The notes under the pieces: model-generated
Seen by the model: only the letters and a program-made list of their open reading frames with translations
Databases searched by the model: none
Told to the model about the DNA's origin: nothing
Translations under genes and position numbers: made by a program
Source: a virus
Lineage: Duplodnaviria; Caudoviricetes
IMG/VR virus record: IMGVR_UViG_3300033273_000282
Location: 128,001-192,000 of that record
Length of the DNA stretch: 64,000 bases
Reading direction: 5' to 3' (one strand)
Shown here: positions 10,300-30,637 of the stretch, piece after piece
Position numbering within the stretch: position 1 is the stretch's first letter
Layout of the letters: every line of letters starts with the position of its first letter

Positions 10300-10509
10300 A
10301 TGGATGTAAACCTTATTATTTCTACATTACAACGTAAAGTTTCTGAGTTGACCTTGAGTAACATTATGTTGGAAGCGAAAATTCTCGATTTAACTAACCA
10401 GTTAAATAGTATCAACCAAGAAAAAAACTCACCAGAGAATGCTATAAATGGCAACGAGGATCAAACTCAAAAGCTCAGTAACAGCCAGCCAGGTTCCAAC
10501 GACTTCTGA
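10300..10509 (+). CDS. Small coiled-coil hypothetical protein
   Basis: MDVNLIISTLQRKVSELTLSNIMLEAKI heptad pattern; overlaps the next gene by 62 nt. Confidence 0.65.
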   Translation: MDVNLIISTLQRKVSELTLSNIMLEAKILDLTNQLNSINQEKNSPENAINGNEDQTQKLSNSQPGSNDF

Positions 10510-13500
10510 CTTAGAAGATCGTGAAGTTGGCTTAAATATTACTGACAAAAAATTATACGTCAATAACAATGGTACGATTGAGGAGGTGGCTAACGCCGAA
10601 CCCAATCCTGCTAGTGTTACTACGGCGATGCTTGCCACGGACATTACTAATGGTCCTGGGGCAACTTGGTTTGTCGCTCAAAATGGTACTGATGTAACCA
10701 CCCTAGGTGGTGGTGGAGCAAACGGTAAACACCCTGATACTCCATTCCTAACTGTTGCTAAGGCTTTGAGCGTTGCTCAGCCTGGTGATTCTATTGAGAT
10801 TGCTGCTGGTTCATATGTAGAGACCTTTCCTCTTACCATTCCTGATGGGGTTCATGTTAGGGGTTCTGGTATTCGCCAAACAGAAATTAAACCATCTGGC
10901 GGCACAAATGATCTGAACGCATTCGTCCTTAACGGTGATGTCACTGTTGAGGATCTTACTATTCGTGACTTTTTCTACAACAGCACGAATGACACTGGTT
11001 ATGGTTTTGTATGTGCTAATAATTGGAACTCCGAGAGAAGCGCATACATTCAAAGAGTCACTATCCTCAACAAAGGTAGTGTAACTTCTGGCTCTGACCC
11101 ATATGGTTTCCAGCAAGGTGATGCTGGACGTGGTGCTAAGCTGGATGGTTCTATTGCTAACAGCGCTGGTATTGAAGCTGCTGTTCTTTTCAACGAATGT
11201 ACGTTCATCGTACCTAATTCCGTTGGTCTGTATCTGACTAATGGTATTCGTGTAGAGTGGCTTAACGGCTTCATCTACTTTGCTGATGAAGGTATTAAAG
11301 GTGTTCAGGGTGCCACTGGTGCGTTTGGTACTGGTAGAACACGTCTTAGACTTTCTGGTACCTCTGGTACATTTGCTGCTGGTGAAGAGATCTATCAACT
11401 GGAAGACCAATTCCAGTCTGGTACTTATTCGAGATCTGGTACCACAGTTACCATTACCAGAAATGCTCACGGTCTGGTAAATGGTGACCGTGTATACGCT
11501 GACTTTATTACTGGTACTGCTACTGACAATTTCTATGTCGTCGGTGGAGTTACCACAAATACATTTACTCTAACTGATAGCGCTTCTGGATCCACAAGCG
11601 GCAACGTAACTTATAAGAAAGCCGACGCTTACGGTTTAATTACTCTTAACGATGGTAGCTACATTTACCTGAGTGGTAAGGGTGAGGGTCAATTTACAAC
11701 CACCGTTGAGGGTGGTAAGACTGCTGTACCTAATGCTGATGCTCAGGCAGATAACTCTGTCAAGAAGTTTGGTACTGGATCTCTGTTACTTGATGGTACT
11801 GGCGACTACGTTAACTATGCTTCCGAAGCTGACTTTGGTTTCGGTACTGCTAACTTCTGCGTTGAGACTTGGATCTACGCAAACGCTCTTTCTGGCACTC
11901 AGACTCTGCTTGACTTTAGAGGATCTGCTGCCGACATTGCTCCAACTCTGAGACTTAATGGTGGAACCGTTGAGTACGCTGTTGGCGGCACAACTCAGAT
12001 TTCTGGTGGCTCTCTTACCACTGGTACCTGGGTACATATCGCCGTTGCTAGATTCAACGGATCTACAAAACTCTTTGTTGCTGGTAACCAAGTAGGTTCT
12101 ACCTATACCGATACTAACAACTATGGTGCTGAGAAAGGACTGAAGATTGGTGCTCAGTATGACAACAGCACTAATTATAATGGTCACCTTGATGAAATCA
12201 GAGTAAGTAAGGGTACTGCTCGTTTCACTGGTAATTTTACTCCATCTTCTGCTGAGTACGGAACTGACATCTTTACAGTTCTGCTGCTCCACTTCAATGC
12301 CAATGATGGCGCTACAATCTTCATAGACTCTGGTTCTGCCATTAAGGACATCCGTTCTAATGGTGGCGACTCGGCTACTGGCATTGCTCTGGTTGACTAC
12401 AACCAGTTTGGCGCTGAACTTAGATCGATTGCTTCGGCAAACGTTTATGGTAATAAGGGTGTTGTTGCTGATGGCAACGGTGTAAAACTCCTTCTTACTG
12501 CTCACAACTTTGCTTATATTGGTGCTGGACAAGACTTCACCAATGATGGTTCTCTCGCTGCTCAGAGCAACGAAGTAGAAGAACTGAATGGTGGTCGTGT
12601 CTTCTACTCCTCTACTGACCAGAAAGGTGACTTCCGTGTAGGTAACGTCTTCCTGGTTGACCAGGAAACTGGTAACGTTAATTTTAGTTCTACCTCTACC
12701 TCTCAGGAAGCCGCTAGCATCACCCTGTCTGATGTTACTGGTACTACAAATATCTTCCCAGCGTATATTGAAACTGGGAACCTGCGTCTTGCTGGCAACA
12801 CGGTCTCCACTACGAGTGGTGATATTATCTTTGATCCCGCTGGTAACCAGGACGTTATATACAATGCTGAAGTCGTCTTCACTGAAGGTGTCTACTACGA
12901 TCAACCAAAATCCGCTAACTTTAAGACTGATGTCCCTGGTAACTTAGGTTTCTATGAGGGTCAGAATCAAAGACGTGGTGGATTTAATGGTTACGGTGTA
13001 CAATCTGACACCAACTTCTACTTAACCAAAGAACAAGTCACTACAGTTACTGTAGATACTGAAGGTGATGGATACACTGGCGGCGCGGCAACAATTGATG
13101 CCGATACTAACCCTCCAGTAGTATGTACCGCTACCCTGACACTGGATCTTCAGGACGGTGCTCTCAAGGAGATCAACGTTACCGCAGGGGGTGACAACTA
13201 TGTCTCTGATCCTACGGTTGGGTTTAGTGCTCCACAAGATGCTGGTGGATCTACTCCTTCTGTTTCTGCTGTTCTTTTCAGCTATGGTGACGTTCAGGCA
13301 ATCACTGTAGATGATGGTGGTGCTGGTTATGCTGCTGCCCCAGGTCTTGTTATTGACGCTCCTGGTGGTATCTCTTTCGATACTGAATCGGACATTTCTG
13401 GAAATGCCATTCAGTCGGCTAACCACCCGATGCGAAATGGTGATCGCGTTGTTTATAGTCAGAATCAAGGTGCCGAAAATATCGGTCTTACCGATGGCAC

Positions 13501-16500
13501 AACATACTTTGTTGTTAACGCTGTTAACGACTCGATTGGTGCTGGTGTAAGTTTCCAACTTTCTGCTACCCAAGGTGGCGCTGTTATTCCTCTGACTGCC
13601 TCTGCTTCTGGTAGTGGAGAGTCTCAAGCAATCAATGGTGTACAAGCCACCGCAACTTGTACTTTGTCGGGTGATGCTATTGCTAGCGTTACCATCACCG
13701 AACCTGGATCTTTGTATGACAGAGGTGCTGGTGTTTCTGTCCAAGAAGATGGATCGCAGTCTCCAACAACCGCTGCTACTCTGACAGTTTATATTGGGTC
13801 TCCTCTCTCTGGATTTATCATCAATAGCAGAGGTAGTGGATATAATGCTGCTCCAACAGTAAGCTTTACCAATGCTGCCGTTGATACTTATGGTGCTGGT
13901 GCTGCTGCTACAACTACCATTGGATTCCCACTCGCCCAAGAACCTGCTGGTCTAACTGTAACTAACGCAGGTGCTGGTTATGCCTTTGCTCCTCAGTATA
14001 AACTGAGTGGTGGCAATCCTGTTACAGAAGCAGTTCTGTCACCAACCCTCGATAAGAAGAAAGGTAATATCAGTTCAGTTGGTATCACTGGTTTTGGTGT
14101 TGGATATTCGTCTGCTCCTACCGTAACATTCTATGGTGGCGCTGGTGACGGAGCCAGACTCACTGTTAATGTTCAATCCTTAGATGGTACCATCACTAAT
14201 GGTGGTACTGGATACGTTGCTGGTAAGTACCAGAGTGTAGAACTTGAATATGTTTCTGGTGGTAGTGGTGCCCCTGCTAGCAATGCTACCGCAGACTTCA
14301 CTGTCGCTGGTTGGACTGGTAACGTCACCAATGCTGGTAGTGGTTATATTGACGGTCAGTATGACGGTCACGTTATGTACAACGTGCCTGCTGCTACTTA
14401 TACCGTAACGGTTATTACCAACCCTGGAGCTGCGCCACCAGATAACGTATATGTTATCAATGGTACTACCCAAGCTTCTCTTAACTTTGTTGAGGGTAAT
14501 ACTTATCGCTTTGATCAGTCTGATTCTTCCAACAGTGGTCATCCACTTCTCGCTGGTAGAGAAGATGGTGGAACCCTTTCTACTGATATTCTTGCCGTTA
14601 GTTATGGTACTCCTGGTGACGCAGGTGCCTTCACTGACATTATCGTAAAGCCAGGTACTGCTGGCGAAGTCCTTGATTATATCTGTAGCAACCATTCCAA
14701 CATGGGTGGCAGCGTTACCATTGGTACTGGTGCTGCTGGTAACTATGGTACTGGTCTTTCGGCAAATGTGACCGTCTCAGGCGGACAGATTACTGCTATT
14801 GAGTCTGCCGCTCAAGGTACTGACTACGCTGTTGGTGATACAGTTTCTGTCAATCCATATGCCATGGATACCAGTGGCGCTGGTAGTGGCTTTTTGTGGA
14901 CTCTTGCTGCTAATGACACAACTATTAGTGTCGTAGACAACATCAGTTTGACTGGTGGTCCATACGAAGTTGGCATGATTCTGTCGGTTGACGTACAGAA
15001 TGTCGGCGGCTCTGGTTCTAACTTTACCTATACTGTATCTAAAGCAGGTTTTGTAAAAGATGTTGACGTAGTTCAGGGTAGTGAAGGTTATGGATACACC
15101 GCAGGTGAAATTCTCTATCCAAGAATTGACCCAACCACAACAGGCAATGCTTTCCAACTCACTGTAGGTAGCACAACTACAACACCCGTTTGGGAATTTA
15201 CTCACGATGGTAGCATTGTAAACTCAGCATTTAATGTTGCTGGTACTAAGGACCCAACTTATGACCCAGGTACTCTGAGTCTCGGTTCTGGTGTTCCTAA
15301 GATTGTAATGGAGACCGAGTTTGGTAACATTACAACCGACGGTAACCTCACTGTTAAGGGCAATCTTACTCTTGGCGATGATGCTGCTGTTGACACAATT
15401 ACAGTTGCTGCTTCTACAACTGCTACTGGTGATACTACTCAGACTGGTGATTTCTCCCTGACAGGAGATATGACCATCGATGGTATCTTTACTCAGTCTG
15501 GTGGTGCTTCCTTCCTTGAGGAATTAACTGGTACCATTGCTGATGGTACTGCCGCTGCTCCTTCTCTGGCTCTTAACACCAGTCCCACCACTGGTTTGTT
15601 CTGGGCAGACACTGACATCATTGGAATTTCTAATGCTGGTGTTGAGACTGGCAGAATTGGTCCTGCTGCTTATGCCGTTGGAACTAGATTCCAAGTTGGT
15701 TCTAGTTCCATAACCGCATCTCCTCTCCTCGATGCTAACCCAGCAACTAACCTTGTAAGAATTGGTAGTTCTGCTAGTGGTCTTAGTATCAGTAGCACTG
15801 GACTCATTGAAGGTAATGGTACCGATGCTAATATTGGTATTACACTTCAACCAAAAGGTACAGGCAACGTTACTGTTGTTGGTGGTACTGATAAAGACTT
15901 TGTTCTGAACGATGGTACTTCTCTCGAACTGTTCAAGGTTGATTTAGATAGTGGTGACGCTAATCTTAAGGGTGGTCTGACTCTTAACAGCAGACTGGAG
16001 ATTAAAGATTACACACTCACTAACCAGTCTCTCGCTACTGCGTCCTTTGGCGAAGTCGTTTCGTTTGATACCAGTGGTACAGCAACTCTGTTTACCGATG
16101 GTAGTTTCACTAACGTCAACATTACCGCAACTGGTACTGGAAAAGGTACTGGTGGTCAGGTAGACGTTACTGTTGTCGGCGGTACTATCACTACCGTTGT
16201 TAAAGCCATTTCTGGATCTGCTGGTAGAGACTATGTTCTCGGGGATACAATTACAATTGACCCCGCTATTATCGGTACTGATCCTGCCCAGACAATCACC
16301 ATCACCGATGTTTCTGGTGCTGGTATTGACCTGAAACCACAGGCTCGTAAGAACGTTAGAATTAACGGTACAGGTACATTTGTCGTTCCCGTTGGTGGAA
16401 CAAATGATAGACCTGTCGCTGACGATCTCTACGTTGGTGGCATCAGATATAACACAACTACCTCTCAGTTTGAAGGATATAACGGCATTGACTTTGTATC

Positions 16501-17626
16501 TCTGGGTGGTGTTCGTGACGTTGACCAAGATACCTACATCCTTACTGAGGTAAGTCCTGGATCTGACGAGGATACCTTCGAGTTCTACAACGCTGGTTTT
16601 AACAGCCTGAGCATTGATGTTAATACCATCACGCTTAAGACTGCCAGAACAATGGACGTTGAGGGTACACTAACCCTTAATGGAACAACAGGTTTGGATA
16701 CGCTGGATGTTCAGCGTAAGTCTACTTCTATTGTCAAAGTAAGAACAACCAAGGATCTGGAGATCACTGGTGGTTTCTATCTCAAGAACCAGTTGGCTGC
16801 TGGTACCATTGCTAGCTTTGATGATGGTACTCTGGGTGCCTCTCCTGGATCCTTCAACAGCGCAGGTAATGTATATACTCCATCTCAAACATTTAGTGCT
16901 GTTGCTGGTGTATCTGAGTTTGCTGGATCTGGATCCACATTCGATGTTGTAACTAACGCTAGTGGTGGCATTACTAGCATCAGCATTGTTAGTGGCGGTT
17001 TTGTTTATGAGGTTGGTGAAATCATCACCATCCCAGGTGGTTTGCTTGGTGGTGGCGTTGGTTCTGATGTTACCTTCACTGTTGCTAGCATCAGCAACGC
17101 TGACGTTGCTCACGGTAAAGTTAGTGCTCTCCAGAGTGAACTTCGCTTTAACCTGAACGGCGACAAGCAATTCCTCAGCCTTGATTCTAATCTTACAGAA
17201 GCTCGACTTAAAGTCAACAGAGACTATGCCACTGGTGGGCAGAACTATCTGACAGTTCTGGACTCCACAGCAAAATTTGTTGAACTCAATGATGCCAGAG
17301 TGGAGGGTGGTGAGATTACCTCCTTCTCCACAACCGTAACTATCACCCAGTTTGAGAAGACTCAGTATAAGGGTGCTAAGACTTTGATCACTCTTGAGAG
17401 TGATGATGGTAAGGTACACATGTTTGAAGTAACAACCATCTGTGCCGCTAGTGGGACTGTGGCTCACGCTACCGTCACAAACTCCATCACATCCGACAAT
17501 GATTTGATGGATGCTTCAGTATCGGTTGCTGGCAACAACGTCCAGATTTCCTTGGCAAAATCGTCGCAGGCAACCTCTTCTTCGACCTTTACAGGTAGAT
17601 ATACAACTACCAAGGTCAAGGTATAA
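10448..17626 (+). CDS. Giant tail-fibre-like protein (2392 aa): beta-helix, LamG domain, GxGY..P repeats, cupredoxin-like domain
   Basis: Fibre N-terminus MATRIKLKSS..VP...L..E.GLN; PFLTVAKAL..G.Y.E beta-helix start; LamG motifs FCVETWIY, WVHIAVAR, GHLDEIRVSKG (about 11762-12300); IRYNTTTSQFEGY motif. Confidence 0.8.
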   Translation: MATRIKLKSSVTASQVPTTSDLEDREVGLNITDKKLYVNNNGTIEEVANAEPNPASVTTAMLATDITNGPGATWFVAQNGTDVTTLGGGGANGKHPDTPFLTVAKALSVAQPGDSIEIAAGSYVETFPLTIPDGVHVRGSGIRQTEIKPSGGTNDLNAFVLNGDVTVEDLTIRDFFYNSTNDTGYGFVCANNWNSERSAYIQRVTILNKGSVTSGSDPYGFQQGDAGRGAKLDGSIANSAGIEAAVLFNECTFIVPNSVGLYLTNGIRVEWLNGFIYFADEGIKGVQGATGAFGTGRTRLRLSGTSGTFAAGEEIYQLEDQFQSGTYSRSGTTVTITRNAHGLVNGDRVYADFITGTATDNFYVVGGVTTNTFTLTDSASGSTSGNVTYKKADAYGLITLNDGSYIYLSGKGEGQFTTTVEGGKTAVPNADAQADNSVKKFGTGSLLLDGTGDYVNYASEADFGFGTANFCVETWIYANALSGTQTLLDFRGSAADIAPTLRLNGGTVEYAVGGTTQISGGSLTTGTWVHIAVARFNGSTKLFVAGNQVGSTYTDTNNYGAEKGLKIGAQYDNSTNYNGHLDEIRVSKGTARFTGNFTPSSAEYGTDIFTVLLLHFNANDGATIFIDSGSAIKDIRSNGGDSATGIALVDYNQFGAELRSIASANVYGNKGVVADGNGVKLLLTAHNFAYIGAGQDFTNDGSLAAQSNEVEELNGGRVFYSSTDQKGDFRVGNVFLVDQETGNVNFSSTSTSQEAASITLSDVTGTTNIFPAYIETGNLRLAGNTVSTTSGDIIFDPAGNQDVIYNAEVVFTEGVYYDQPKSANFKTDVPGNLGFYEGQNQRRGGFNGYGVQSDTNFYLTKEQVTTVTVDTEGDGYTGGAATIDADTNPPVVCTATLTLDLQDGALKEINVTAGGDNYVSDPTVGFSAPQDAGGSTPSVSAVLFSYGDVQAITVDDGGAGYAAAPGLVIDAPGGISFDTESDISGNAIQSANHPMRNGDRVVYSQNQGAENIGLTDGTTYFVVNAVNDSIGAGVSFQLSATQGGAVIPLTASASGSGESQAINGVQATATCTLSGDAIASVTITEPGSLYDRGAGVSVQEDGSQSPTTAATLTVYIGSPLSGFIINSRGSGYNAAPTVSFTNAAVDTYGAGAAATTTIGFPLAQEPAGLTVTNAGAGYAFAPQYKLSGGNPVTEAVLSPTLDKKKGNISSVGITGFGVGYSSAPTVTFYGGAGDGARLTVNVQSLDGTITNGGTGYVAGKYQSVELEYVSGGSGAPASNATADFTVAGWTGNVTNAGSGYIDGQYDGHVMYNVPAATYTVTVITNPGAAPPDNVYVINGTTQASLNFVEGNTYRFDQSDSSNSGHPLLAGREDGGTLSTDILAVSYGTPGDAGAFTDIIVKPGTAGEVLDYICSNHSNMGGSVTIGTGAAGNYGTGLSANVTVSGGQITAIESAAQGTDYAVGDTVSVNPYAMDTSGAGSGFLWTLAANDTTISVVDNISLTGGPYEVGMILSVDVQNVGGSGSNFTYTVSKAGFVKDVDVVQGSEGYGYTAGEILYPRIDPTTTGNAFQLTVGSTTTTPVWEFTHDGSIVNSAFNVAGTKDPTYDPGTLSLGSGVPKIVMETEFGNITTDGNLTVKGNLTLGDDAAVDTITVAASTTATGDTTQTGDFSLTGDMTIDGIFTQSGGASFLEELTGTIADGTAAAPSLALNTSPTTGLFWADTDIIGISNAGVETGRIGPAAYAVGTRFQVGSSSITASPLLDANPATNLVRIGSSASGLSISSTGLIEGNGTDANIGITLQPKGTGNVTVVGGTDKDFVLNDGTSLELFKVDLDSGDANLKGGLTLNSRLEIKDYTLTNQSLATASFGEVVSFDTSGTATLFTDGSFTNVNITATGTGKGTGGQVDVTVVGGTITTVVKAISGSAGRDYVLGDTITIDPAIIGTDPAQTITITDVSGAGIDLKPQARKNVRINGTGTFVVPVGGTNDRPVADDLYVGGIRYNTTTSQFEGYNGIDFVSLGGVRDVDQDTYILTEVSPGSDEDTFEFYNAGFNSLSIDVNTITLKTARTMDVEGTLTLNGTTGLDTLDVQRKSTSIVKVRTTKDLEITGGFYLKNQLAAGTIASFDDGTLGASPGSFNSAGNVYTPSQTFSAVAGVSEFAGSGSTFDVVTNASGGITSISIVSGGFVYEVGEIITIPGGLLGGGVGSDVTFTVASISNADVAHGKVSALQSELRFNLNGDKQFLSLDSNLTEARLKVNRDYATGGQNYLTVLDSTAKFVELNDARVEGGEITSFSTTVTITQFEKTQYKGAKTLITLESDDGKVHMFEVTTICAASGTVAHATVTNSITSDNDLMDASVSVAGNNVQISLAKSSQATSSSTFTGRYTTTKVKV

Positions 17627-18206: not shown

Positions 18207-21200
18207 ATGAGCTTAAGCCTTAATTCTTCACAGCAAAGACTTGAGGGTAGCGGTCTAGTCCCCCAGGGTCCCTGGACTTCCGCTACTTATGGTAGAGCTA
18301 ATGGTATCGTCACTGTTACTTCCGTTGCTCACAGATTAAACGATGAAGAAAGAATCTATATCAAGTTTGGCGAAGACCAACTTTTGAGAACGATTCCTGC
18401 TGGTCAGCATGAAATCAATGTAGTTGACGACGATACATTTACCATTACTGGTACTGGGCAGAACTTTATTGAGGCTGCTACTGCTTGTTCTTATCGTCTG
18501 GTAAGATCCTTTGTACTTAACGCCACCGACTCCATGGCGTTCACCGTTGGCACTGGAGCCAACGAAGATGATGCTGTCTTCATTAACAAAGGTCCTACTG
18601 GAAACATCCGTGTTGGTATTAACAACACTAACCCTGAGTTTGACCTCGACGTTGAAGGTCAGATCAGAACCACTCGATCCATCATTTCTGATACAGCGCA
18701 AATCAGAAACCTGGATGTTACCAACGAGTTTGTAACCAAGGGTCTGGATCTGCGTGGTCCTAACCTTATTAACTTTGAGGAAACTGATCCTACCGCTAGT
18801 GACTTCGGTACGATCTACTATCCTACTGCTGACAACCCTCCACGTCAGACACAGAATAATAGAATTGCTACAACCAAGTTCGTATATGACGTTGCTACTG
18901 CCGATAACGGCGGTCGTGTATACGTATCTTCGGTCCCTGGTATTGGTGATGACGAGAACGATGGTCGTTCCGCCGCTAAGCCAGTTCGTACTATTAAGAA
19001 GGCAGCACAGATTGCCTACTCCCTCCAGCAGGACACTGAAGTACCTGAGTACGTGTCCATCATTGTATCGGGTGGTGACTATGTTGAAGACAACCCAATC
19101 TCGCTGCCTTACAACTGCTCGCTGATTGGTGATAACCTTCGTCGTGTTATCCTGCGTCCTCTGAACCAGGATCGCCACATGATCAAGGCGTCCAACGAGA
19201 CGTATGCTGCTGGCGTTGTTTTCAGAGATCACCTCGACAACACTGGAACTCCAGACTGGACCTGGAAGTACGCTTACGTATTTGACGACAAACAGCGTCT
19301 GTACTACGAGCCTGAAATTGCTCCATTCTCCTTCTCTCCTGGTCTTGAGAACCAAGGTCGTAACCTTTTTGCTATCACCTTTGAGAACCATACTGGTGAT
19401 AACACAACCCTTCTCGTCGGTTATGCCGTTGAGGGTGGTTCTTCGTCCTCTAGAGGTATCATTGAATCTGTAGTATTCACTGGTCCCAATGCTTCTCCAT
19501 ATTCTTCTGGTACCATTCAGGTATTGATGAGTGACGATCAGTCAACATTCCTGTTGGCTGAAAAACTATACTATGCTGACATCTACGCCAACATCGTTAA
19601 GACAGGTGCTTCCCCATCTGACTCTCTTGACGTTGCTGACCGTGAATCTCAGAGACCAGAAACTGAGGTTATCAAGCACCAGAGATATCAGCACGTTATT
19701 AGTTCTGAGACTGAGACTCTGCGCTTTGATGGTACAGATCTTAATAATGTCATTGATACTACTGACAACAGAATTACAATCCCACTCCACAGATTGTATA
19801 CTGGTGCCAAGGTAATCTATAAAGTTCAGAATGAAGACGGCGCTCCCGTTGAGGGTCTGACTGATAACACCACTTACTTTGTTCGTGTTATCAATGACAA
19901 TACTATCGAGTTGTATGATACTTGGCTGGATGCTACAAGTCTCCAGACTACAACTGGTATTAGAAACCTGAGTGATGAAGGTAGTGGCGATGAGCACACC
20001 CTGTTCACATGTAGGGTTTCGGTCAACGACGACACTATCTACTTCCCCAACCATGGTCTGTTTACGGGCAATGGTATTTACTACCGTGCTTCTAAGGCAG
20101 GCGGTATTGGTGGTCTTAATGACAACTCTCTGATCTTTGTCTATAGAGTAGACAGCCATCACTTTAAGCTTGCTAATACTCAGGCAGATGCTACCAATAA
20201 GAACATTTCTGGTGAAGATGCTCCAGTAATTCTGCCTCTGACTTCTGAGGGTATTGGTTATCAGCGCTTTGAGAAAGCAATCAACGTTGTTGACATCTCT
20301 AGCGTAACTACTGACGTTGCTACTCAGCAAGCATACAACGGTATCATCTATGAAGTCACTGCGGCTTCTAGAGTTATTGAAGGTATTAACTTCGTTGGTC
20401 ATGACTATGAAGTCGGTCAAGAAGTACAAATCTATGGTCTTCCTTACACCGCACTGAGTTTCGGTAGCGGTGCTAGTGCTACCTATACTCAAACAGCAAA
20501 CCTGATTACAGTTACGGTCTCCAATACAGACCCAACTGTAATGAACGTTCTTTGGCCAAACCTCAAGACCCTTGGTCCTGTTGGTGGTAAGGGCGTTGGT
20601 GTTCGCATGGTCTTTGACGATGCTGGTAACACTGGACATATCAATAAGTCTTTCCACATCGCCACGTATCAAGACGGTACACTGGCTCAAACCCAGTCCG
20701 ATTTTAATGCTTATCTGGGCAGCCCATCTAACCTGGGCGCTGGTGTTGCTAGATATAATTCTTCTACTAATGAGGTTTACTTCCTCCTTAGAGCAGTAGA
20801 CTCTGCTACCAGAAGTGGTACAGTAACTGTCTTCGACAACCTTGGCGACTTCAATGGTCGTAAGTACGTTACTCATCGTATTGAGCGTGCTGACGGCTAC
20901 TCTGTTAAGTTCGTAACTAGAGGTTCTTGCTCTAGAATTGCTACGGCTCTTGACCCATCTGGTGACCAGCAGGTTTGTTCTGCTACCAACTATGCTTTGA
21001 TGTCGCTGAGGAACTCTCCTTATGCGTTCGATAAAGTAGAGTTTGGCGCTAACGTCCAAGAATCTGCTAAGCAAAGAGACGCTGCTGAGACAATCAACAA
21101 TAACCTCAGCTTCATTGCTGAGGAATCTTACGCTTATGTTAAGTCCCAGTACAACGCTGGTACTAACACAAGTTTCTCCAGAACTGGTACATACACCTGC

Positions 21201-24200
21201 TCTGGCAATGTAATGACTGTTACTTGCCCTAGAGGTTCTGCTGTATTTGCCAAGAACTCCTACGCTTTTAACTTCAGCGGTGCCACTACAGACGGTGCTT
21301 ACATCGTTGATGACTGTGAGGATCACAGAAGATTCACAATCATCCTCCCTGCTGCTAGCACGGATTCTGGTACAGTAACTATCACCATCCCTGCTCCTTG
21401 GCAGACACCAAACTCTGTTCCTCCCGTTGACAGAGCTGCTGATGGCACATCTTTGATTCTGGCTAACAAGCAACTGATTGCTCAAGAAGCAGTTGCTCGT
21501 ATGTTGATTGCTAACCCAACCTTCAACATTCCAACTGGCAACCAGGCTTGTATTGATGATGCTGTTGACTTCCTGGAAGCAATGGCATACAACCTTGCTT
21601 ACGGTGGTAACGATCAGGTCTATGATGCCGCTAAGTATTATGTTGATGGCGCTCACGTTGTAGGTGAGGAAGATGAATCTGTAGAGGTCTTCAACAACGC
21701 CAGAGACATTGCTATTCAAGTAATGCGTAACCAGACGGTTACCATCCAAGGTAGCCATGGTCTGACTCAGATTAAAGACTTTACCATCTCCCCCGACTCT
21801 GCTAACTCTGGAGTCGGTGATCGCTTCAGTGATGCTCGCAACCTGATCTACAAGAACAAAGAGTTCATTGCTGAGATCGCTGTCGGCAGATTGAATGCCA
21901 ACCTCGGATATGAGGTTGTAGATTCCAGACACATGGATGCCCACGATCTGCTGATCGCTAACCTGGACTTCATTGCTGAAGAAGCATATGCTGTTCAGTT
22001 GGCTGCCGATCCTAATCTGACCACCCCAACAGGTGATCCTCAGGATTGTATCGATGACGTTAGAGACATCCTTACCGCAGTTGCTTTCAACGTACAGCAT
22101 GGTAGCAACAACCAAGTCTGGGATGCTGCTAACCTGTATGTTGGTACACCTCACATTCAAGGTGAAGAAGCTAACTCTATTGCGATTATCAACCACGCAA
22201 GAGACATTGCTAAACTGGTAATCACCAACAGAACTCACACTAAAGTTGGTAGTCACGAATACACCCAGTCCTTCGATACCACCATCACCCACGATCAATC
22301 TGCTTCTGGTGGCGCTTACAGTTCTGCTGATTGCGCTAACGTCCAGAGCACCATTGATTCTCTGATGCTGATCGTTACCGATGCGATCACCAACCAGACT
22401 CTGAATGGTGTTACTAAGACTACCCCTGCTACCTTCTCCGTTCCAACTGGCAACCAGTCCTGTATTGATGACATCATCAATATTCTGGAAGTTGCTTCCT
22501 GGAACTTGGCTATGGGTGGCAACGACTTCACCTATGATGCTGCTAACCTGTACATCACAGGCAACCACGTCGTTGGCGAAGAGAACCACTCCATCTATGC
22601 TTTCCGTCAGGCAAGAGATATTGCCATCGAGTGTTTCCAGAATGAAGATGTAACTACTGGTGGATACACCCAACGCACTCAATTTAAGGATCTTACGATC
22701 ACTCAGGACACAGGTCTTCCAATCTGTGCTAACGTAATCGCATCACTTACTGCGTTGATGAACGTTGTTGAAGTTGCTATTGATACCCAGTCTCTGTCTT
22801 CTTTTACTAGAACGGATTCTTACGCAAACAGATGTTCTGACACTGCTGCTGCCATCACCTCTCTGACTGGTGTTGTTACAGGTGCTATTGGTAGCACTGG
22901 TAACCCTGGTAGCCTGAGTGGTGTTGTTAGAACATATCCAGTTAGCGACCAACAGTGTATTGATGACGTATATCACGTACTCCGTGCTTGGATGTACGAC
23001 ATGCGTTATGGCGGTAACTCCAAGACTATTGAAGCCGCACAGAAGTACATCCAAGGTACTAACGTTAACTACGTTACTAATGAAGTACCTCAAACTCGTG
23101 AGGTATATACAAGAGCCGAGCAACTTGCTACTCTTGCTATTCGTAACCAACTCCCTCAGGGTGAGTTCTCGCAGATTGCTCCATTCCACAACGCATCTAC
23201 AACAGTTGATAGCAACCAACCCGAGTGTGGTGCTTCTATCACCTTCCTGAATGGTCTTGCTACCATTCTGGATGACGCGCTGTCAACTGCTGGAACATCA
23301 CTTTCCAATGTTACTCTCACCGAGCCAAGCACACTCCTGAAAGATGACAGTGGACTTAAGATTGTCCCAATGTTGGCTGACAACCTTGACCTACCTGTTA
23401 TTGAGGCATCGCCTTACATCCAGAACGCATCGCTGATTTCGTTCCTGGGTGCGTCTGGTGCTGAGATCGATGGTGCTAAGGTTGCTTCTCCCAACGTTCC
23501 CCGTCCTGGTGTATTCCTCGACGGTAACGGTGTTGAGCGTTCTACTTTCCCACCTCAGGGTAAGTCGATGGTTGCCAACGCCTTCACGATCATCTCGGTC
23601 AACGGCGGTGTTGGATATAACATTCTGAACGATGGTTACACCCAGCTGGTGTCGGTCTTTGTCATCTTCGGTGGAGATGGTGTTATTGTTCAGTCTGGTG
23701 GTTATGCCTCACTGACTAACTCTGCTTCTAACTTTGGTACCCGTGCTCTGAAGGCAACTGGTTACCGTTCTGAGGCTTATGAGTTTGACGTTGGTACCGT
23801 AACCCAGATCAGAAACCAAACAGACAACAACGGTGCTCAAACTGGTCGTCAGATCATTGAGGTCGGTGGTCCTATCACCAACTTCCCTGTTGAAGACTAT
23901 ATCATCAAATTTGAAGGATTTAGAAATTCTGATCCTGCTAAGGAATACTTCGTCCTTGGTACGGAACAACTGTCTGGTTCGATCGGTACTCAGATTACCG
24001 CTAACGTTACTACTAACGACGGTCTGGGTCTTGATCTGATCAGAGAGTCCGATAGCACAAACGTGTCGTTCCAGAACGGCAACCTGGATCTGCTGAACAA
24101 TGCGGTCATCAAATTCCACAGACCTTCGATCTGTAACTCCTCCTCCCACACCTGGGAATATGTTGGTGCTGGTGATACCTATAACGCTCTGCCTCAAAAC

Positions 24201-27200
24201 GGTGGTGTTGGTATTCCTGCTAACGAAGCAGTTGAAGAAGCATACGGTCAGGTCTACACCTCTGGTACTAACGAATTCGGTGACTTCAAGGTTGGTGACT
24301 TTGTTACCATCTTCAACAGAACTGGTAGTATCAGCTTCGTTGGTACTGTTAGTATCTCCGAACTGTCTTCGATTAAGATCGTTGGTGGCTCTATCACCAT
24401 TACTGGATTCTCCGACAGTGATGAACTGGGTGGTGCTTTTGCTTCTGACTCCTTGCTGCCTACACAGGCTGCTGTTAAGGACTACATCACCAACAAACTT
24501 GGTCCATACCTGAACCAGCCATACTCAACCAACGCTGTTCCTAGCGCTCTGGTTCAGTTGACCACTAGCGGTAAGATCAACATTGAACAGATCCCCGCTC
24601 TGCGTCCTTTCAATATCACATCTGTTGCCTCTACTGCCGAGCGTCTTGCTATTGAAGATGCCAGCGCTGGTGACATCGCTATTGAAACAACTTCGACTTC
24701 TTATCAAGTTGCTCCTTCTAGCGTTGATATTGTCAATGAAGTTATCACCATTCCTTCTCACGGTCTTACCACTGGCGATATTCTGACCTACTTCCAAGGT
24801 ACCTCCAACATTGGTAACTTGGCTGATGGTGCTAACTACTATGTAATTCAACATGCTATTGGTGCTAACACCACCGACTACATCAAACTCGCTACTTCCT
24901 TGGCTGATGCTCAGGCAGGCACTGCGAGAAACCTGACTTCTCAAGGTACTGGCACCCACGTCTTCCGTACTGAAGGTGCTGCTATTTCCTACATTCTGGA
25001 AAATGACCTTGATACAATGTATGCTGCGTTTGTTCCTAACAGCGCATACGTATTCAGCAACAACTCTCTGATTATTGGTTCTCAGTCTACTGCTCAGGTA
25101 ATCGTCACCAACTACGAAGGTGGTGTCGTCAGAGACATTCTGATCGATGATCCTGGTTCTGGTTACGCTACTGCTCCTGGTATTAGCATCAGTGCTCCAC
25201 CTAGCGGTACTCAAGCAACTGCGAGTTGTACTATCACTAATGGTCAGGTAGCGTCGATCACCATTACCAACCCTGGTTCTGGTTACTACACAGCACCTAC
25301 AGTTTCTTTCACAGGTGCTCCTACAGGCGGTACAACTGCTACTGCTCAGGGCAATGCTGCTAGAATTGAAGCCAGACTTTATGTTGATCTTGCTAATAAT
25401 ATCAAGATCTCTGACATTGACTTCATTCTTGACGAAGCAAACGTCACCGTAGCCAGCGGCGTATACACCCACGATACCTTCGATATCACAATTACTGAAA
25501 CCAATCACGGATTTAGCCAAGGTGATACGGTATATCTGGAATTCACATCTGGTTCTTCGACCAGTGGTTTCTACTCTGTTGATAGTATTGTCAACGCAAA
25601 CGAGTACACGGTTGTTGCTCAGACAGCACTCCTTACCTCTGGTAACTACAACAGAAAGAGAATCGTTGACATCACCAGAGTTGTTAACACCTCTGCTTCT
25701 AACGCTCAGAACTGGACTCAGTTGTCCTCCACTAACATCGATGCTTCTAACATCGTTGCTGGTGTTATTGACCCACAGCGTTTGGCTGACACTGGTGTTG
25801 CTAACTCCTTCACCTTCCTTAGAGGTGATGCTTCCTTCCAGTATGCTGTTCAGTCGATTAAATTTACTACAGACGATGTTCTGGTTGGTGAATCTTCGAT
25901 TCAGGATAACAGCTACATTGAGAAAGTTAATATCGTTAACCCTGGTTCTGGTTATACCGTTGGTACATACCAGAACATCCCAATGGTCGGCGGTAACGTT
26001 CAGATCTCTGAGCAAGGCGTTGCTCGTGCTACCTATACCGTCGCTGACGTTGTAACTGGTGGTATTGTAGATAGCGTAAGTAACCTGTCGTTTACCCCAG
26101 GATCTTACACCCCCAGCAGCACATTTGACGTTTCTGTTTCTACCACCGATGGCGCTGGTCTCGGTGCTCAGATCAGATTCGTAACTGATGTCAACGGTGA
26201 TATCGCAGTTGATATCATTCTCGATGGTGGATCTGGATACAATGGTGGCGATACTCTTGAATTTGACGGTCCACTCTTCGGTGGTACTGTACAGCAGGGC
26301 GTAAGCGTAACTGTATCCACGTTGACTTCCAGCACAACCCTTGGTGCTATCACTAGCGTTTCGGTTGTTACTCCTGGTACTGGATACACCTCTGACTTTA
26401 CACTCACAGTTCCTAGCGAACTGGGTCAACCAGTTCAGGCAGGTAGTCTGACTGCTGTTAAGGGTACATTGTCTCGTTACTACGGTAACGCTTCGTTTGA
26501 CCTTCTCAAGGCAAACAACCTTACCCCAACAACCCTCCAGGCTGGCGGTTCGGTCTTCGGTAACTATGGTATCGCCAAGTTCCGTAAGCCAGCTGCTGAG
26601 CAAGCGCTCGCTAACCAAGACCTCGGTGGTTTCGTTATTACCACTGCTGGTGAAGTTACCATTGACCAGGGTCCTGGTTCTAAACTGAACGCTGATAAAC
26701 TGGATGGTAACGAAGGTTCCTTCTACCAGAACGCTACCAACCTTATTGAGGGTATTCTTGATCCTCAGCGCCTGGCAAACACCACCTACAACATCTCGAT
26801 CTCTGGTACAGCAGACTACGCAAACACTCTGTTCTGCGAAACAACTGCTCCATCTTCCGCTAACGCTTCCCTCGTCAGCGCTGCTAACGTAGGTACCCAG
26901 CTTGCCCTGAGATCCAACTCCGTAACTGGTATTCCTACCGATGCTGGTGGAACCAGAGCGGGTATCATGACGTTCCGTCGTTCCGCAACTGGTAACTCTG
27001 TTGCTCAGTTGGCTTTCTCTGCCACCGACAACCTGTACCTGAGAGGCAACTCTGACACTGGTACTGTATATGGTCAGTGGGCGAAGATCTGGTCTTCTGA
27101 GAACGATGGTGCTCCCGATCCTAACGATCCTCGTCGTGGCACTCTGCCTGGTCCAGATGCCGACTACCTCGATGGTAAGCAAGGTCTCTGGTATCAAGGT

Positions 27201-29108
27201 GGTTACAACATCAATGACCAGCGTGTTGCTGGTGTCATCGGTGACACTGCTCTGCCCGAGCTGCTGGGTCGTAATAAGTATTTCGCTGACAACCTGTATC
27301 TGGTTGCTTCAAGTGAGACTTACGAACTGTATGTTCCCGACTTCTTCTGTGCTACTGGTACTGCTCCTGTTGGTAACTTGGCTAACAATGGAGTTTATAC
27401 ACTCTACTCCGATGAAGCCGCTGTCAATAACATCGGTACAATCACCATTCTTGCTAACGGTATTTCCGAAGTTAACGACACCACTACTGGTTCCATCTAC
27501 ACAACGATTAGAGGTACAATCAGTTTCGTTGGTAACTACACCAACAAAGATATCAAGGTCTTTGGTCCTAACCCTGGTACTAAGTGGACTGTTACTTCTT
27601 CCAACCTGCTGACCACTGGCGCAAGTCAAGTGTTCGCTATGAGCAACACCGCTAACGGTGCTCTGCTTGAAATTGGTAGAACTAACATCGTTGCTACCCC
27701 AACCATTGACTTTAGATCTGGTGCTCTGGCTTCTGACTATGATGTAAGATTTGAAGTTAGCGGTGGCACCGCACAGAACGGTGAAGGTGTTATCGAACTG
27801 AAGACCAGTTCCTTCACCCTGAACGGCAACACTGTATGGCACTCTGGTAATGACGGTGTTTCCTCTCAGTTGGACGCACACTATGTTGATGGTTACATCC
27901 AGAGCTCTTCTAACACAAACAATGCTCTTGTAAGAAGAACATCAAGCGGCGACATTAACATCTCTGACGTATACGCTGATCAAGGTATCTTCGCCAACAC
28001 TGGTGAATCCATCCTTCAACTTGCTGATAGCAACGGTATCAACCTCGGTAAGGCAGGCACTAACGTTCTGTCCCTCAGAGGTAGACAGAATACCAATACT
28101 GGTTACATTGAGTTTGGTAATGATTCCAAGAAACTTGGTTGGAACGGTACTCACCTGTCCTACGGTACAATCTACTTCCGTAACAACAGAATCGGTATTG
28201 GCAATGATAACCCACAATATGATCTTCACGCCGCAGGTGATATCGTCACTGGTAGCACAAGCAGATCCGCTAATACAGTTGTTCGTGCTCTCTCGGGAGA
28301 CAGCAACCAAGCAGGCTTTGAAGCGTACGGTAACAGCCAAGGTACTGGTTACCTGTACATAGGTCAGTCTACTTCTTATGGTGGTGGTATTGCCTATAAC
28401 GGCGACAACTCCCCCGCAGCGTTCGGTTCTGAACAGGGTGACGATATCACCTTCTACAGAAGAAACAACGGCACTGACACCCGTGTCATGAAGTACCGTT
28501 ATAATGATTCTACCGTTCACTTCTTCGGTCAGATTCGCTCTCGCGTTGCTACTGGTACCGCTCCCGTCGATGTAGACTCCACTACAGTATGTAATAACCT
28601 GAACGCTGACCTGCTCGATGGATACCAGGCAAACAACCTGCCTTACCTGTCCAGAGCAGTCAACACCTGGATTACTGATGCGAACGGTCAGCAGAGATTC
28701 TACTTCTCTAACAACTCTCATACATACTTCAGAACTGGTAATGACTTCTTCTTCAGAAATGATTCTGATCAGACATTCTTGTCGATGGATGAGGGTGGTA
28801 GAGTTCACTTCCACGAGCCAGGTAGCAACAGCATTCAGAGCAGCTACAGACTCCAAGTTACTGGAGATAGTGGTCTTAACATTAACGCTTCTGAAAGTCT
28901 CTCTAGTGGTCAGAAGTCTACTGTTCTCAGAGCAACTGGAGACAAGCAGTATCTTGACTCCTATGGTATAATCAAGAGAAACCGTCAGAACATTAGCGAG
29001 TCTATCACCATCAACAACGGTGATTCTTGTGGATCCTTTGGTCCTATCACTATAAATAATAATGTGACCATTCAAGTCGCCCCAGGCGGTGCCTGGGTAA
29101 TTCTCTAA
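18207..29108 (+). CDS. Giant multidomain virion/fibre protein (3633 aa) with split beta-helix and four phycobiliprotein-like helical domains
   Basis: Single open frame with GGAG SD at 18194. Contains DDENDG....P..TIKKA beta-helix start, NHGL..G..Y repeats, CIDD..YGGN helical repeats, RIGIGNDNP and LNADLLDGY fibre motifs, and C-terminal GPITINNNVTIQVAPGGAWVIL. Confidence 0.8.
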   Translation: MSLSLNSSQQRLEGSGLVPQGPWTSATYGRANGIVTVTSVAHRLNDEERIYIKFGEDQLLRTIPAGQHEINVVDDDTFTITGTGQNFIEAATACSYRLVRSFVLNATDSMAFTVGTGANEDDAVFINKGPTGNIRVGINNTNPEFDLDVEGQIRTTRSIISDTAQIRNLDVTNEFVTKGLDLRGPNLINFEETDPTASDFGTIYYPTADNPPRQTQNNRIATTKFVYDVATADNGGRVYVSSVPGIGDDENDGRSAAKPVRTIKKAAQIAYSLQQDTEVPEYVSIIVSGGDYVEDNPISLPYNCSLIGDNLRRVILRPLNQDRHMIKASNETYAAGVVFRDHLDNTGTPDWTWKYAYVFDDKQRLYYEPEIAPFSFSPGLENQGRNLFAITFENHTGDNTTLLVGYAVEGGSSSSRGIIESVVFTGPNASPYSSGTIQVLMSDDQSTFLLAEKLYYADIYANIVKTGASPSDSLDVADRESQRPETEVIKHQRYQHVISSETETLRFDGTDLNNVIDTTDNRITIPLHRLYTGAKVIYKVQNEDGAPVEGLTDNTTYFVRVINDNTIELYDTWLDATSLQTTTGIRNLSDEGSGDEHTLFTCRVSVNDDTIYFPNHGLFTGNGIYYRASKAGGIGGLNDNSLIFVYRVDSHHFKLANTQADATNKNISGEDAPVILPLTSEGIGYQRFEKAINVVDISSVTTDVATQQAYNGIIYEVTAASRVIEGINFVGHDYEVGQEVQIYGLPYTALSFGSGASATYTQTANLITVTVSNTDPTVMNVLWPNLKTLGPVGGKGVGVRMVFDDAGNTGHINKSFHIATYQDGTLAQTQSDFNAYLGSPSNLGAGVARYNSSTNEVYFLLRAVDSATRSGTVTVFDNLGDFNGRKYVTHRIERADGYSVKFVTRGSCSRIATALDPSGDQQVCSATNYALMSLRNSPYAFDKVEFGANVQESAKQRDAAETINNNLSFIAEESYAYVKSQYNAGTNTSFSRTGTYTCSGNVMTVTCPRGSAVFAKNSYAFNFSGATTDGAYIVDDCEDHRRFTIILPAASTDSGTVTITIPAPWQTPNSVPPVDRAADGTSLILANKQLIAQEAVARMLIANPTFNIPTGNQACIDDAVDFLEAMAYNLAYGGNDQVYDAAKYYVDGAHVVGEEDESVEVFNNARDIAIQVMRNQTVTIQGSHGLTQIKDFTISPDSANSGVGDRFSDARNLIYKNKEFIAEIAVGRLNANLGYEVVDSRHMDAHDLLIANLDFIAEEAYAVQLAADPNLTTPTGDPQDCIDDVRDILTAVAFNVQHGSNNQVWDAANLYVGTPHIQGEEANSIAIINHARDIAKLVITNRTHTKVGSHEYTQSFDTTITHDQSASGGAYSSADCANVQSTIDSLMLIVTDAITNQTLNGVTKTTPATFSVPTGNQSCIDDIINILEVASWNLAMGGNDFTYDAANLYITGNHVVGEENHSIYAFRQARDIAIECFQNEDVTTGGYTQRTQFKDLTITQDTGLPICANVIASLTALMNVVEVAIDTQSLSSFTRTDSYANRCSDTAAAITSLTGVVTGAIGSTGNPGSLSGVVRTYPVSDQQCIDDVYHVLRAWMYDMRYGGNSKTIEAAQKYIQGTNVNYVTNEVPQTREVYTRAEQLATLAIRNQLPQGEFSQIAPFHNASTTVDSNQPECGASITFLNGLATILDDALSTAGTSLSNVTLTEPSTLLKDDSGLKIVPMLADNLDLPVIEASPYIQNASLISFLGASGAEIDGAKVASPNVPRPGVFLDGNGVERSTFPPQGKSMVANAFTIISVNGGVGYNILNDGYTQLVSVFVIFGGDGVIVQSGGYASLTNSASNFGTRALKATGYRSEAYEFDVGTVTQIRNQTDNNGAQTGRQIIEVGGPITNFPVEDYIIKFEGFRNSDPAKEYFVLGTEQLSGSIGTQITANVTTNDGLGLDLIRESDSTNVSFQNGNLDLLNNAVIKFHRPSICNSSSHTWEYVGAGDTYNALPQNGGVGIPANEAVEEAYGQVYTSGTNEFGDFKVGDFVTIFNRTGSISFVGTVSISELSSIKIVGGSITITGFSDSDELGGAFASDSLLPTQAAVKDYITNKLGPYLNQPYSTNAVPSALVQLTTSGKINIEQIPALRPFNITSVASTAERLAIEDASAGDIAIETTSTSYQVAPSSVDIVNEVITIPSHGLTTGDILTYFQGTSNIGNLADGANYYVIQHAIGANTTDYIKLATSLADAQAGTARNLTSQGTGTHVFRTEGAAISYILENDLDTMYAAFVPNSAYVFSNNSLIIGSQSTAQVIVTNYEGGVVRDILIDDPGSGYATAPGISISAPPSGTQATASCTITNGQVASITITNPGSGYYTAPTVSFTGAPTGGTTATAQGNAARIEARLYVDLANNIKISDIDFILDEANVTVASGVYTHDTFDITITETNHGFSQGDTVYLEFTSGSSTSGFYSVDSIVNANEYTVVAQTALLTSGNYNRKRIVDITRVVNTSASNAQNWTQLSSTNIDASNIVAGVIDPQRLADTGVANSFTFLRGDASFQYAVQSIKFTTDDVLVGESSIQDNSYIEKVNIVNPGSGYTVGTYQNIPMVGGNVQISEQGVARATYTVADVVTGGIVDSVSNLSFTPGSYTPSSTFDVSVSTTDGAGLGAQIRFVTDVNGDIAVDIILDGGSGYNGGDTLEFDGPLFGGTVQQGVSVTVSTLTSSTTLGAITSVSVVTPGTGYTSDFTLTVPSELGQPVQAGSLTAVKGTLSRYYGNASFDLLKANNLTPTTLQAGGSVFGNYGIAKFRKPAAEQALANQDLGGFVITTAGEVTIDQGPGSKLNADKLDGNEGSFYQNATNLIEGILDPQRLANTTYNISISGTADYANTLFCETTAPSSANASLVSAANVGTQLALRSNSVTGIPTDAGGTRAGIMTFRRSATGNSVAQLAFSATDNLYLRGNSDTGTVYGQWAKIWSSENDGAPDPNDPRRGTLPGPDADYLDGKQGLWYQGGYNINDQRVAGVIGDTALPELLGRNKYFADNLYLVASSETYELYVPDFFCATGTAPVGNLANNGVYTLYSDEAAVNNIGTITILANGISEVNDTTTGSIYTTIRGTISFVGNYTNKDIKVFGPNPGTKWTVTSSNLLTTGASQVFAMSNTANGALLEIGRTNIVATPTIDFRSGALASDYDVRFEVSGGTAQNGEGVIELKTSSFTLNGNTVWHSGNDGVSSQLDAHYVDGYIQSSSNTNNALVRRTSSGDINISDVYADQGIFANTGESILQLADSNGINLGKAGTNVLSLRGRQNTNTGYIEFGNDSKKLGWNGTHLSYGTIYFRNNRIGIGNDNPQYDLHAAGDIVTGSTSRSANTVVRALSGDSNQAGFEAYGNSQGTGYLYIGQSTSYGGGIAYNGDNSPAAFGSEQGDDITFYRRNNGTDTRVMKYRYNDSTVHFFGQIRSRVATGTAPVDVDSTTVCNNLNADLLDGYQANNLPYLSRAVNTWITDANGQQRFYFSNNSHTYFRTGNDFFFRNDSDQTFLSMDEGGRVHFHEPGSNSIQSSYRLQVTGDSGLNINASESLSSGQKSTVLRATGDKQYLDSYGIIKRNRQNISESITINNGDSCGSFGPITINNNVTIQVAPGGAWVIL
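29051..29058 (+). promoter_or_regulatory. T4 late promoter TATAAATA embedded in the 3' end of the 3633-aa gene
   Basis: Exact consensus 58 nt upstream of the ATG at 29117. Confidence 0.55.
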
Positions 29109-29116
29109 GTAAATCT

Positions 29117-29869
29117 ATGAGTAGGTTATACGTAAATAATATCCGCGCTTACAGCGGATCAACTATTTCCATTCCTGCCACTACTGCCCTCTCTCTTGGT
29201 GGAGCCAAGATTGACGAGAACTCTGTTCTGCCCAGTGCTTCTGGGCAGGCTAACCGAGCAGTTGGTAGTGATGGTGAGCAAGTTGTATATGACACTTACG
29301 GTGCTCAGTCGATCCAAGTGTTCCAAAGTTCTGGAACATACACTAAATCGGCTGGCGTCAATACCGTTCTTGTCAGGCTTGTAGGTGGCGGTGGTGGTGG
29401 TTCAGGTCATGCTGAATCTGGTGGTGCTGGTGGATACGCTGAAAGAGTTTGCGATGTATCTGGAGTAAATACAGTATCCGTTGTCGTTGGACAGGGTGGT
29501 GCTGGTACTTACTACTCTGGTAGATCGAGCCAAGGTGGTTCTACTTCATTTGGTTCTTTCTGTTCTGCTACTGGTGGCGATGGCGCTAACCAGTCTTTCC
29601 AACATGCTGGTGGACTGGGGGGAATCGGTGCTGGTGGAGATGTTAATATGTACGGCGGCGGTGGATCTGCCCACGGTAGATATAACGGAGCAGGTGGATA
29701 TTCCTTCTTCGGTGGTTGCGCTGCTAGAGGACACCCCCGTGGTGGCGACTATTCAAGAAACCACCAATCAAGATGTGCTCCTGGATCGGGTGGCGCTAAC
29801 GGCTGGTTTCGATCCTACCTCGGACCAGATGGTAAACACGGTATGGTAGTAATCTGGGAATTTAAGTAA
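29117..29869 (+). CDS. Glycine-rich fibre-tip/adhesin-like protein, paralog 1 (250 aa)
   Basis: MSRLYVNNI fibre-adaptor N-terminus; GGGGGGSG..E.GGAGGY, GG.GAN..QH.GG and YGGGGS.H motifs. Confidence 0.7.
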   Translation: MSRLYVNNIRAYSGSTISIPATTALSLGGAKIDENSVLPSASGQANRAVGSDGEQVVYDTYGAQSIQVFQSSGTYTKSAGVNTVLVRLVGGGGGGSGHAESGGAGGYAERVCDVSGVNTVSVVVGQGGAGTYYSGRSSQGGSTSFGSFCSATGGDGANQSFQHAGGLGGIGAGGDVNMYGGGGSAHGRYNGAGGYSFFGGCAARGHPRGGDYSRNHQSRCAPGSGGANGWFRSYLGPDGKHGMVVIWEFK

Positions 29870-29872
29870 ACA

Positions 29873-30634: not shown

Positions 30635-30637
30635 ACA

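Follow-up and report, generated by a model that had tools for sequence, protein, structure and literature searches.

Four domains derived from the phycobiliprotein beta chain very probably lie nested inside one another in a giant structural protein of a cyanophage. The protein is encoded in a 64,000-nucleotide stretch (hereafter the window) that covers positions 128,001 to 192,000 of the Caudoviricetes record IMGVR_UViG_3300033273_000282, a virus record of 200,309 bases. Nesting is last-in-first-out and can be written A[barrel, B[C[D]]]: domain D is contiguous, C wraps D, B wraps C, and A wraps a small beta module plus B. A sequence-only reading of this DNA had proposed this recursive insertion, and the evidence below supports it exactly as drawn; whether the domains carry bilins is judged separately. 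The gene and the parts of the nest, in window coordinates and residues (aa) of the encoded protein, are as follows.

18207..29108 (+): giant tail-fibre-type protein hosting the nest, 3,633 aa (phrog_5342, 2311 bits)
21057..21161 (+): domain A part 1, helices A/B ('B-helix', Asp958 = beta-Asp39 equivalent); profile, docks on A part 2
21171..21392 (+): small beta-barrel, aa 989-1062, in A's B-E loop ahead of domain B; structural match
21423..21797 (+): domain B part 1, helices A, B, E, F', F, G and most of the G-H loop (Asp1079, Cys1115); orthologue P0069, model
21813..21905 (+): domain C part 1, helices A/B (Asp1209); profile, covariation, spliced score
21918..22394 (+): domain D, contiguous, innermost (Asp1244, Cys1281, Cys1376); model Z 16.8
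22428..22790 (+): domain C part 2, helices E to H (Cys1419, Cys1507); spliced C 184 bits, 154/156 positions
22827..22892 (+): domain B part 2, helix H (Cys1543); P0069 match and globin alignments of the model
22938..23285 (+): domain A part 2, helices E to H (Cys1584, Cys1674); spliced A 115 bits, 152/156 positions

The sequence-only reading had named 12 residues, three per domain, in a B-helix (D958, D1079, D1209, D1244), a CIDD block (C1115, C1281, C1419, C1584) and a terminal Cys helix, here H (C1376, C1507, C1543, C1674). All are found where it placed them (D958 at nucleotide 21078, C1674 at nucleotide 23226), and their positions bear out the segment order B-B-CIDD-B-B-CIDD-H-CIDD-H-H-CIDD-H. 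To these we added a fourth segment, a G helix that follows every CIDD block (at 1154, 1320, 1458 and 1626). Searches with iterated position-specific profiles of the B, C (CIDD), G and H segments produced 563, 564, 563 and 541 matches in 121 homologous proteins, compared with 1, 0, 0 and 0 in shuffled sequence, so the motifs are not chance occurrences. A profile of the contiguous domain tiles the query protein in complementary pieces: profile positions 3-36 and 37-154 fall on aa 954-987 and 1578-1696 for A, positions 3-130 and 125-154 on aa 1075-1201 and 1536-1565 for B, and positions 2-30 and 28-155 on aa 1204-1232 and 1404-1530 for C, while only D is matched in one piece (positions 2-155, aa 1239-1399). 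Spliced in silico and scored with a profile from which the query's own family was left out, the four domains A to D reached 115, 204, 184 and 188 bits and covered 152-154 of 156 profile positions. By these scores the region amounts to four complete domains' worth of sequence; the pairing of the segments needs other tests. Similarity among the four domains is 28-45%. An ordinary tandem repeat of complete units, head to tail, was considered and is ruled out, as D alone is contiguous in the query. B lies inside A while hosting C, and C hosts D, so that an inserted domain is itself a host. Tandem arrays of the domain do occur in some other relatives.

The pairing of segments is seen most simply among full-length orthologues, which are 40-74% identical over long flanks and differ by whole layers. 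P0069 has two domains, A[barrel,B], and P0047 has three, A[B[x]]; the two are 89-92% identical on both sides of a net gain of 157 aa in B's G-H loop, and the query shows a net gain of 336 aa at the same site. Best matches in the query to the contiguous domain of P0069 are B1079, C1115, G1154 and H1543 (57, 81, 77 and 61% identity), the other query H helices reaching 17-43% against its H, and query B is 77% identical to this domain over aa 1101-1177. B958, C1584, G1626 and H1674 match the outer domain of P0069. Uninterrupted homologues of the hosts exist for B, contiguous in P0069, and for C, whose nearest contiguous relatives are 53% identical and, in the closest of them, carry a B helix most like B1209; no orthologue with an empty A was found. 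This series, together with the structural model described below, bears out the earlier proposal that B wraps C between its last two helices, in the G-H loop.

More widely, 137 of 279 homologues are balanced, each of the four segments occurring equally often, and every one of these 137 can be parsed as a strict nest; 35 architectures are represented. Child domains are inserted at G|H 289 times, at B|C 138 times and at C|G 8 times, and the commonest depth among the sampled proteins is 5, the deepest 10. A valid parse is necessary for nesting but not sufficient, and because the homologues share ancestry they cannot be counted as independent; a naive null for strict nesting, with log10 P of about -43, takes no account of this and is not used as a probability. 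Covarying pairs taken from contiguous domains were scored in discontinuous domains under nested pairing, first-in-first-out (FIFO) pairing, pairing with the next inner segment and random pairing. The mean z values for H were 0.96, 0.32, 0.16 and -0.04+/-0.12, respectively, and those for B 1.69, 0.17, 0.36 and -0.08+/-0.12, the signal for discontinuous B being clear in the larger set only and not in the first small set. Couplings under nested pairing comprise an antiparallel G-H ladder and a link joining the starts of helices A and H; FIFO pairing yields no pattern of this kind. Where a contiguous reference of 70% identity or more was available, the H assigned by nesting was the best match in 19 of 29 cases and the FIFO H in 0 of 29; the test has no power where the reference is less than about 50% identical, as for domain A.

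The nested domains have the phycobiliprotein beta core fold (globin-like, helices A-H), and are not phycobiliprotein subunits. When the domain profile was compared with the PDB, phycoerythrin and phycocyanin beta chains ranked first (best E 1.5e-5), with the B-helix Asp aligned to beta-Asp39, the CIDD block to Cys82/Asp85 and the H-helix Cys to the beta Cys153-158 site. In an AlphaFold model of aa 950-1710 (mean predicted local distance difference test score, pLDDT, 81; predicted template modelling score, pTM, 0.58), D superposes on phycoerythrin/phycocyanin beta residues 31-177 with a Z-score of 16.8 and a root-mean-square deviation (r.m.s.d.) of 2.2 over 138 residues, the best-ranked structural matches being beta chains. 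The N-terminal helices X/Y, which serve alpha-beta assembly, were not found: low-r.m.s.d. matches begin at beta residue 31-34 and the profile match at 35. Compared with phycocyanin and phycoerythrin beta (PF00502; PDB 7s96_B, 1xf6_C), the phage domains share helices A-H (Z 16-17, r.m.s.d. about 2.2) and align equivalents of Asp39, Asn47, Cys82/84, Asp85/87 and Cys153/155. They differ in lacking X/Y, and hence an alpha-beta monomer, in a longer G-H loop, in being embedded in a 3,600-aa phage protein, in the replacement of Arg86 in the query's four copies and in the fact that single domains fall below the Pfam cut-off.

It had been suggested that nesting would explain possible failures of linear profile searches to detect the homology. 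This is not the main cause: PF00502 gives the contiguous D 13.2 bits, B part 1 16.5, the nested region 31.5 when summed and the full protein 22.1 (cut-off 22.2). The same profile gave no score for the contiguous B of P0069, a phmmer search of the PDB with D alone found no match, a profile being needed, and PF00502 is already annotated on many deeply nested homologues. On these comparisons detection is limited by divergence, and nesting hides only the split halves of A and C. Foldseek found no match to the whole 761-aa model in the PDB at E<=0.001 and an ESM Atlas search gave weak rows only, both being uninformative at such length.

The same model closes B as a discontinuous domain. A phycobiliprotein beta chain aligns with B up to model residue 613 (Z 16.1, r.m.s.d. 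3.1) and three globins align across model residues 118-124 to 613-622, so that B closes with H1543 across the 336-residue insert. In a model of P0069 (pLDDT 85, pTM 0.85), B is a closed globin (Z 17.0) and the remaining well-predicted helices are left for A; three ApcE rows spanning residues 26-386 of that model were ambiguous and not used. The small beta module at aa 989-1062 is a barrel of the phi92 endosialidase type (Z 9.1, r.m.s.d. 2.0 over 73 residues), which the FCCH domain of Uba1 also matches.

The host gene matches phrog_5342 'tail fiber protein', is preceded by a baseplate wedge gene and followed by phrog_863 fibre genes, and its product is, as judged from sequence, a T4-like cyanophage tail-fibre-type or virion structural protein. 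A tblastn search with the nest region matched 348 phage records, essentially all of them Synechococcus or Prochlorococcus phages. An uninterrupted 236-aa stretch of the homologue P0134 aligns to query aa 238-339 (40%) and aa 1715-1838 (35%); as it spans both halves, the nest and approximately 570 residues of other modules interrupt a conserved host domain, probably a beta-helix.

18918..19223 (+): N-terminal half of the split host domain, aa 238-339, putative beta-helix; alignment to P0134
23349..23720 (+): C-terminal half of the split host domain, aa 1715-1838, putative beta-helix; alignment to P0134

The whole insert is approximately 1,370 aa, nest included, and the chain is back in the host domain approximately 20 residues past A's last helix. 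An out-and-back topology via two permissive loops is shown by the alignments and the predicted models together, the cargo loops being the B-E loop in A and C and the G-H loop in B. On this evidence the chain leaves the host domain, passes through the opening segments of A, B and C in turn, folds D whole, then completes C, B and A in reverse order and re-enters the host domain about 20 residues on, making the region a probable side arm looped out from the giant virion fibre of a cyanophage. The tails that follow helix H carry an [RK]T or T.P motif in 60% of cases, compared with a 20% background, and this conserved tail may bring the domain ends together so that a unit fits into a loop.

All four query domains keep both bilin-site pairs, the equivalents of Asp39/Cys155 and Cys84/Asp87, and the chances that they bind bilins at beta-84 and beta-155 sites are about evenly balanced. 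Beta-Asp39 is the counter-ion of the beta-155 bilin in phycocyanin. In a set of 275 contiguous domains, 202 keep the equivalents of both Asp39 and Cys155, 62 have lost both and 11 are discordant, while Cys84 persists, and the Asp39-Cys155 pair is the strongest coupling to H (z 7.4). Such joint keeping and loss, with Cys84 persisting, is more readily explained by a bilin site of the beta-155 type than by a disulfide. A disulfide within the domain, linking its two cysteines, is disfavoured, Cys84 being kept in 60 of the 62 domains without Asp39 and Cys155; P0085-94, in which the inner H lacks its Cys and the CIDD Cys84 is kept, also count against it. More broadly, the inner domain of P0082-P0094 has lost the H-helix Cys, and in P0092 and P0094 the B-helix Asp too, with the CIDD Cys kept, apparently a separate loss of the beta-155-type site. 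The genome encodes a CpeT-family lyase (G000:C1:86305-86751 (+), PF06206, 61 bits; loci L001/L002), and lyases of the CpeT type serve beta-Cys153 (PMC10452541). In another locus ho1 and cpeT (L004:2507-3719) lie about 4 kb upstream of the 12-domain, ten-deep homologue P0140 (L004:8001-16784). The beta-155 site, which would form only once two distant segments close, could be loaded by the phage CpeT, and the arm could then be a pigment-bearing host-contact or light-related appendage.

Three observations weigh against pigment: neither a bilin reductase (PebS/PcyA, PF05996) nor a haem oxygenase (PF01126) was matched in the genome, the four query copies have Asp in place of the Arg that precedes Asp87 (CIDD rather than CLRD), and the joint loss of Asp and Cys mostly tracks one lineage split. 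The nest could thus be real and its domains pigment-free structural extenders, their cysteines forming disulfides or surviving as relics, a possibility that we place only a little below even. Co-opted folds often serve as spacers in fibre proteins, and the replaced Arg86, the lack of bilin synthesis genes among those found in the genome and the large class of relatives without Asp39 and Cys155 all agree with it; on the other side, the cysteines do not behave as a disulfide pair, as the persistence of Cys84 in those 60 domains and in P0085-94 indicates, and Cys155 covaries with Asp39. The composite proposal, that cyanomyoviruses carry branched, bilin-loaded arms of host-derived phycobiliprotein-beta domains, whose number and tree shape recombination reshuffles between genes while preserving balance, with the beta-155 site as the real substrate of the phage CpeT, is tentative and, taken as a whole, somewhat improbable.

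With regard to the origin of the layers, these may be gained or lost in single recombination events that keep the balance, through insertion either of a complete domain or of a cassette already nested, or through a double crossover in which the repeated opening and closing segments act as homology arms. A double crossover at repeated segments would yield paired indels around a divergent core, and balanced counts, in one step. Paired indels of this kind were seen in another gene family, between P0022 and P0037 (130+36 aa, core 72% versus flanks 81-85%) and between P0020 and P0060 (260+72 aa, core 67% versus flanks 82-84%). In the query, C[D] aligns nearly gap-free, at 49% identity, with layers 5[6] of a paralogue of 4,449 aa that the same genome encodes, compared with 29-36% for other two-layer nests, and both junction linkers are alike, with lengths 35 and 43 and the same linker motifs. 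As C[D] and both its junctions are common to the two genes, it has probably moved between them as one pre-nested cassette, which these alignments make likely rather than proven. The three serial self-insertions implied by the sequence-only reading are thus not needed in this gene. That each layer arose within the gene by copying a neighbouring domain we consider unlikely: the orthologue series of two, three and four domains, with a clean single-domain gain between P0069 and P0047, fits it, as does D being equally close to the inner domain of P0047 and to the paralogue (51% each), but the four domains are just 28-45% alike and C[D] has its closest two-layer match, linkers included, in the paralogue. 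Tree support for the domain groupings is modest (0.76-0.88).

The expectation that all four domains close as globin bundles in a predicted structure stood for D and B; for A closure is supported by docking and orthology, and that of C we infer by exclusion and homology. In a three-chain prediction with B1209 present, B958 docks on A part 2, at helices E and G and the beginning of helix H, with a score of 0.64 (best control 0.01), contact agreement of at least 84% and partner pLDDT of at least 66. In calibration, 58 of 80 solved pairs attained the docking mark, as did 2 of 110 mismatched ones; the B958 job is unlike this calibration, and likeness to solved phycobiliproteins may drive the pass. 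Several points count against the nest as described. The structural aligners never displayed A or C as a closed globin in the models of the query or P0069; closure of the nest is a matter of predicted models, not of an experimental structure; and the model was folded from an alignment that included shorter homologues, so it is no independent test of the sequence parse. With a pTM of 0.58 and pLDDT below 50 at the B-to-C junction, which may be a hinge, the overall shape of the arm is not fixed by the model. Finally, 142 of the 279 proteins are unbalanced, being fragments or having divergent H helices, and fall outside the grammar test. A crossing or domain-swapped pairing (FIFO, or B958 with C1419 and B1209 with C1584), which would give an interlocked bundle in place of the nest, is nevertheless very improbable: the mutual similarity of the B helices and of the H helices (16-41% identity) makes swaps sterically conceivable and A and C are not directly displayed, but the covariation signal is lost under FIFO, the two- and three-domain orthologues keep B958 with C1584-H1674 in the absence of C or D, the model closes B with H1543, and B958 passes on A part 2 despite B1209 as competitor.

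A phycobiliprotein domain that tolerates a large insertion is known from ApcE (LCM), which aligns over chain range 46-242 with 129 residues matched. Its PB-loop lies between helices B and E, where A and C also take their inserts; in ApcE the insert is one non-globin loop and not another copy of the domain. Recursive insertion within one family is already known from the Si3 region of cyanobacterial RNA polymerase beta' (RpoC2), in which sandwich-barrel hybrid motifs are nested to six levels (PMC13114784, PMC10895346). In Si3 as in the phage fibre, one domain family is inserted into itself, inner copies are continuous, outer ones are assembled from distant segments and there are branching nodes; Si3, however, is all-beta, with a fixed number of about eight copies, in a core enzyme, whereas the phage unit is an all-alpha globin fold, belongs to a virion protein, can take inserts in any of three loops and is nested to depths of 1 to 10 among relatives. 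In the RTX adhesin AhLap, immunoglobulin-like domains are split to project cargo (PMC12077191); there too an interrupted host domain projects cargo off the axis of a giant adhesin over several levels (beta-roll > vWFA > insert), but host and cargo differ in fold and there is no self-nesting. A 2026 census of 2.7 million classified domains found mostly single-level insertions and gave the six-level Si3 as an example of complexity (PMC13114784). The earlier remark that three levels of self-insertion are unusual thus holds for proteins in general, the self-nesting build being rare and otherwise known mainly from cyanobacterial RNA polymerase, and does not hold for this family, in which depth is commonly 5 and up to 10. 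We found no published account of phycobiliprotein-like domains, or of their nesting, in phage fibres, within incomplete literature coverage. What the family adds is an all-alpha domain that self-nests routinely and to variable depth in a large set of ocean phage proteins. The query gene is modest in depth; its value lies in the two-, three- and four-domain orthologues and the paralogue-shared cassette that reveal layer gain, which make it a small, tractable model for nested folding and recombinational expansion. The contiguous D and the A[B] of P0069 offer clean constructs for asking about virion bilins and the target of the viral CpeT.

The genome holds 12 copies of the phycobiliprotein-like domain, and the domain profile matches 1,368 clusters at 50% identity. 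Outside the window, one giant reading frame of the same genome (G000:C1:114041-127387 (+)) has six copies in two three-deep nests and another (G000:C1:35022-46409 (+)) has two tandem copies. A circularly permuted class (P0141, P0178, P0190 and P0134; locus L003:5567-18721) begins with an H helix lacking its Cys and nests at the H|B junction; counts are exactly balanced in P0141 (18/18) and in P0178 and P0190 (12/12), 8-9 deep, and the class keeps Cys84/Arg86/Asp87 and not Asp39/Cys155. In P0003-P0013 the B-E loop of C is longer by 770-1,800 residues, which follow D (for example P0008 aa 1415-2250). The added cargo is a series of repeated beta modules, and the motifs of their N and C halves likewise alternate as brackets do (for example nncc...), which suggests a second self-nesting module in the same gene.

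Upstream of the nest gene, a 2,392-aa protein (window 10448-17626) shares the nest gene's host domain (aa 84-288), there lacking the large first insert, and has a LamG domain; phycobiliprotein-like domains are absent from it. Downstream lie three phrog_863 fibre paralogues of equal length and then two tryptophan-halogenase genes (window 29117-31393, 31959-35085). An open frame of 1,038 codons on the opposite strand (window 19566-22682 (-)) overlaps the nest and is probably a codon-usage shadow.

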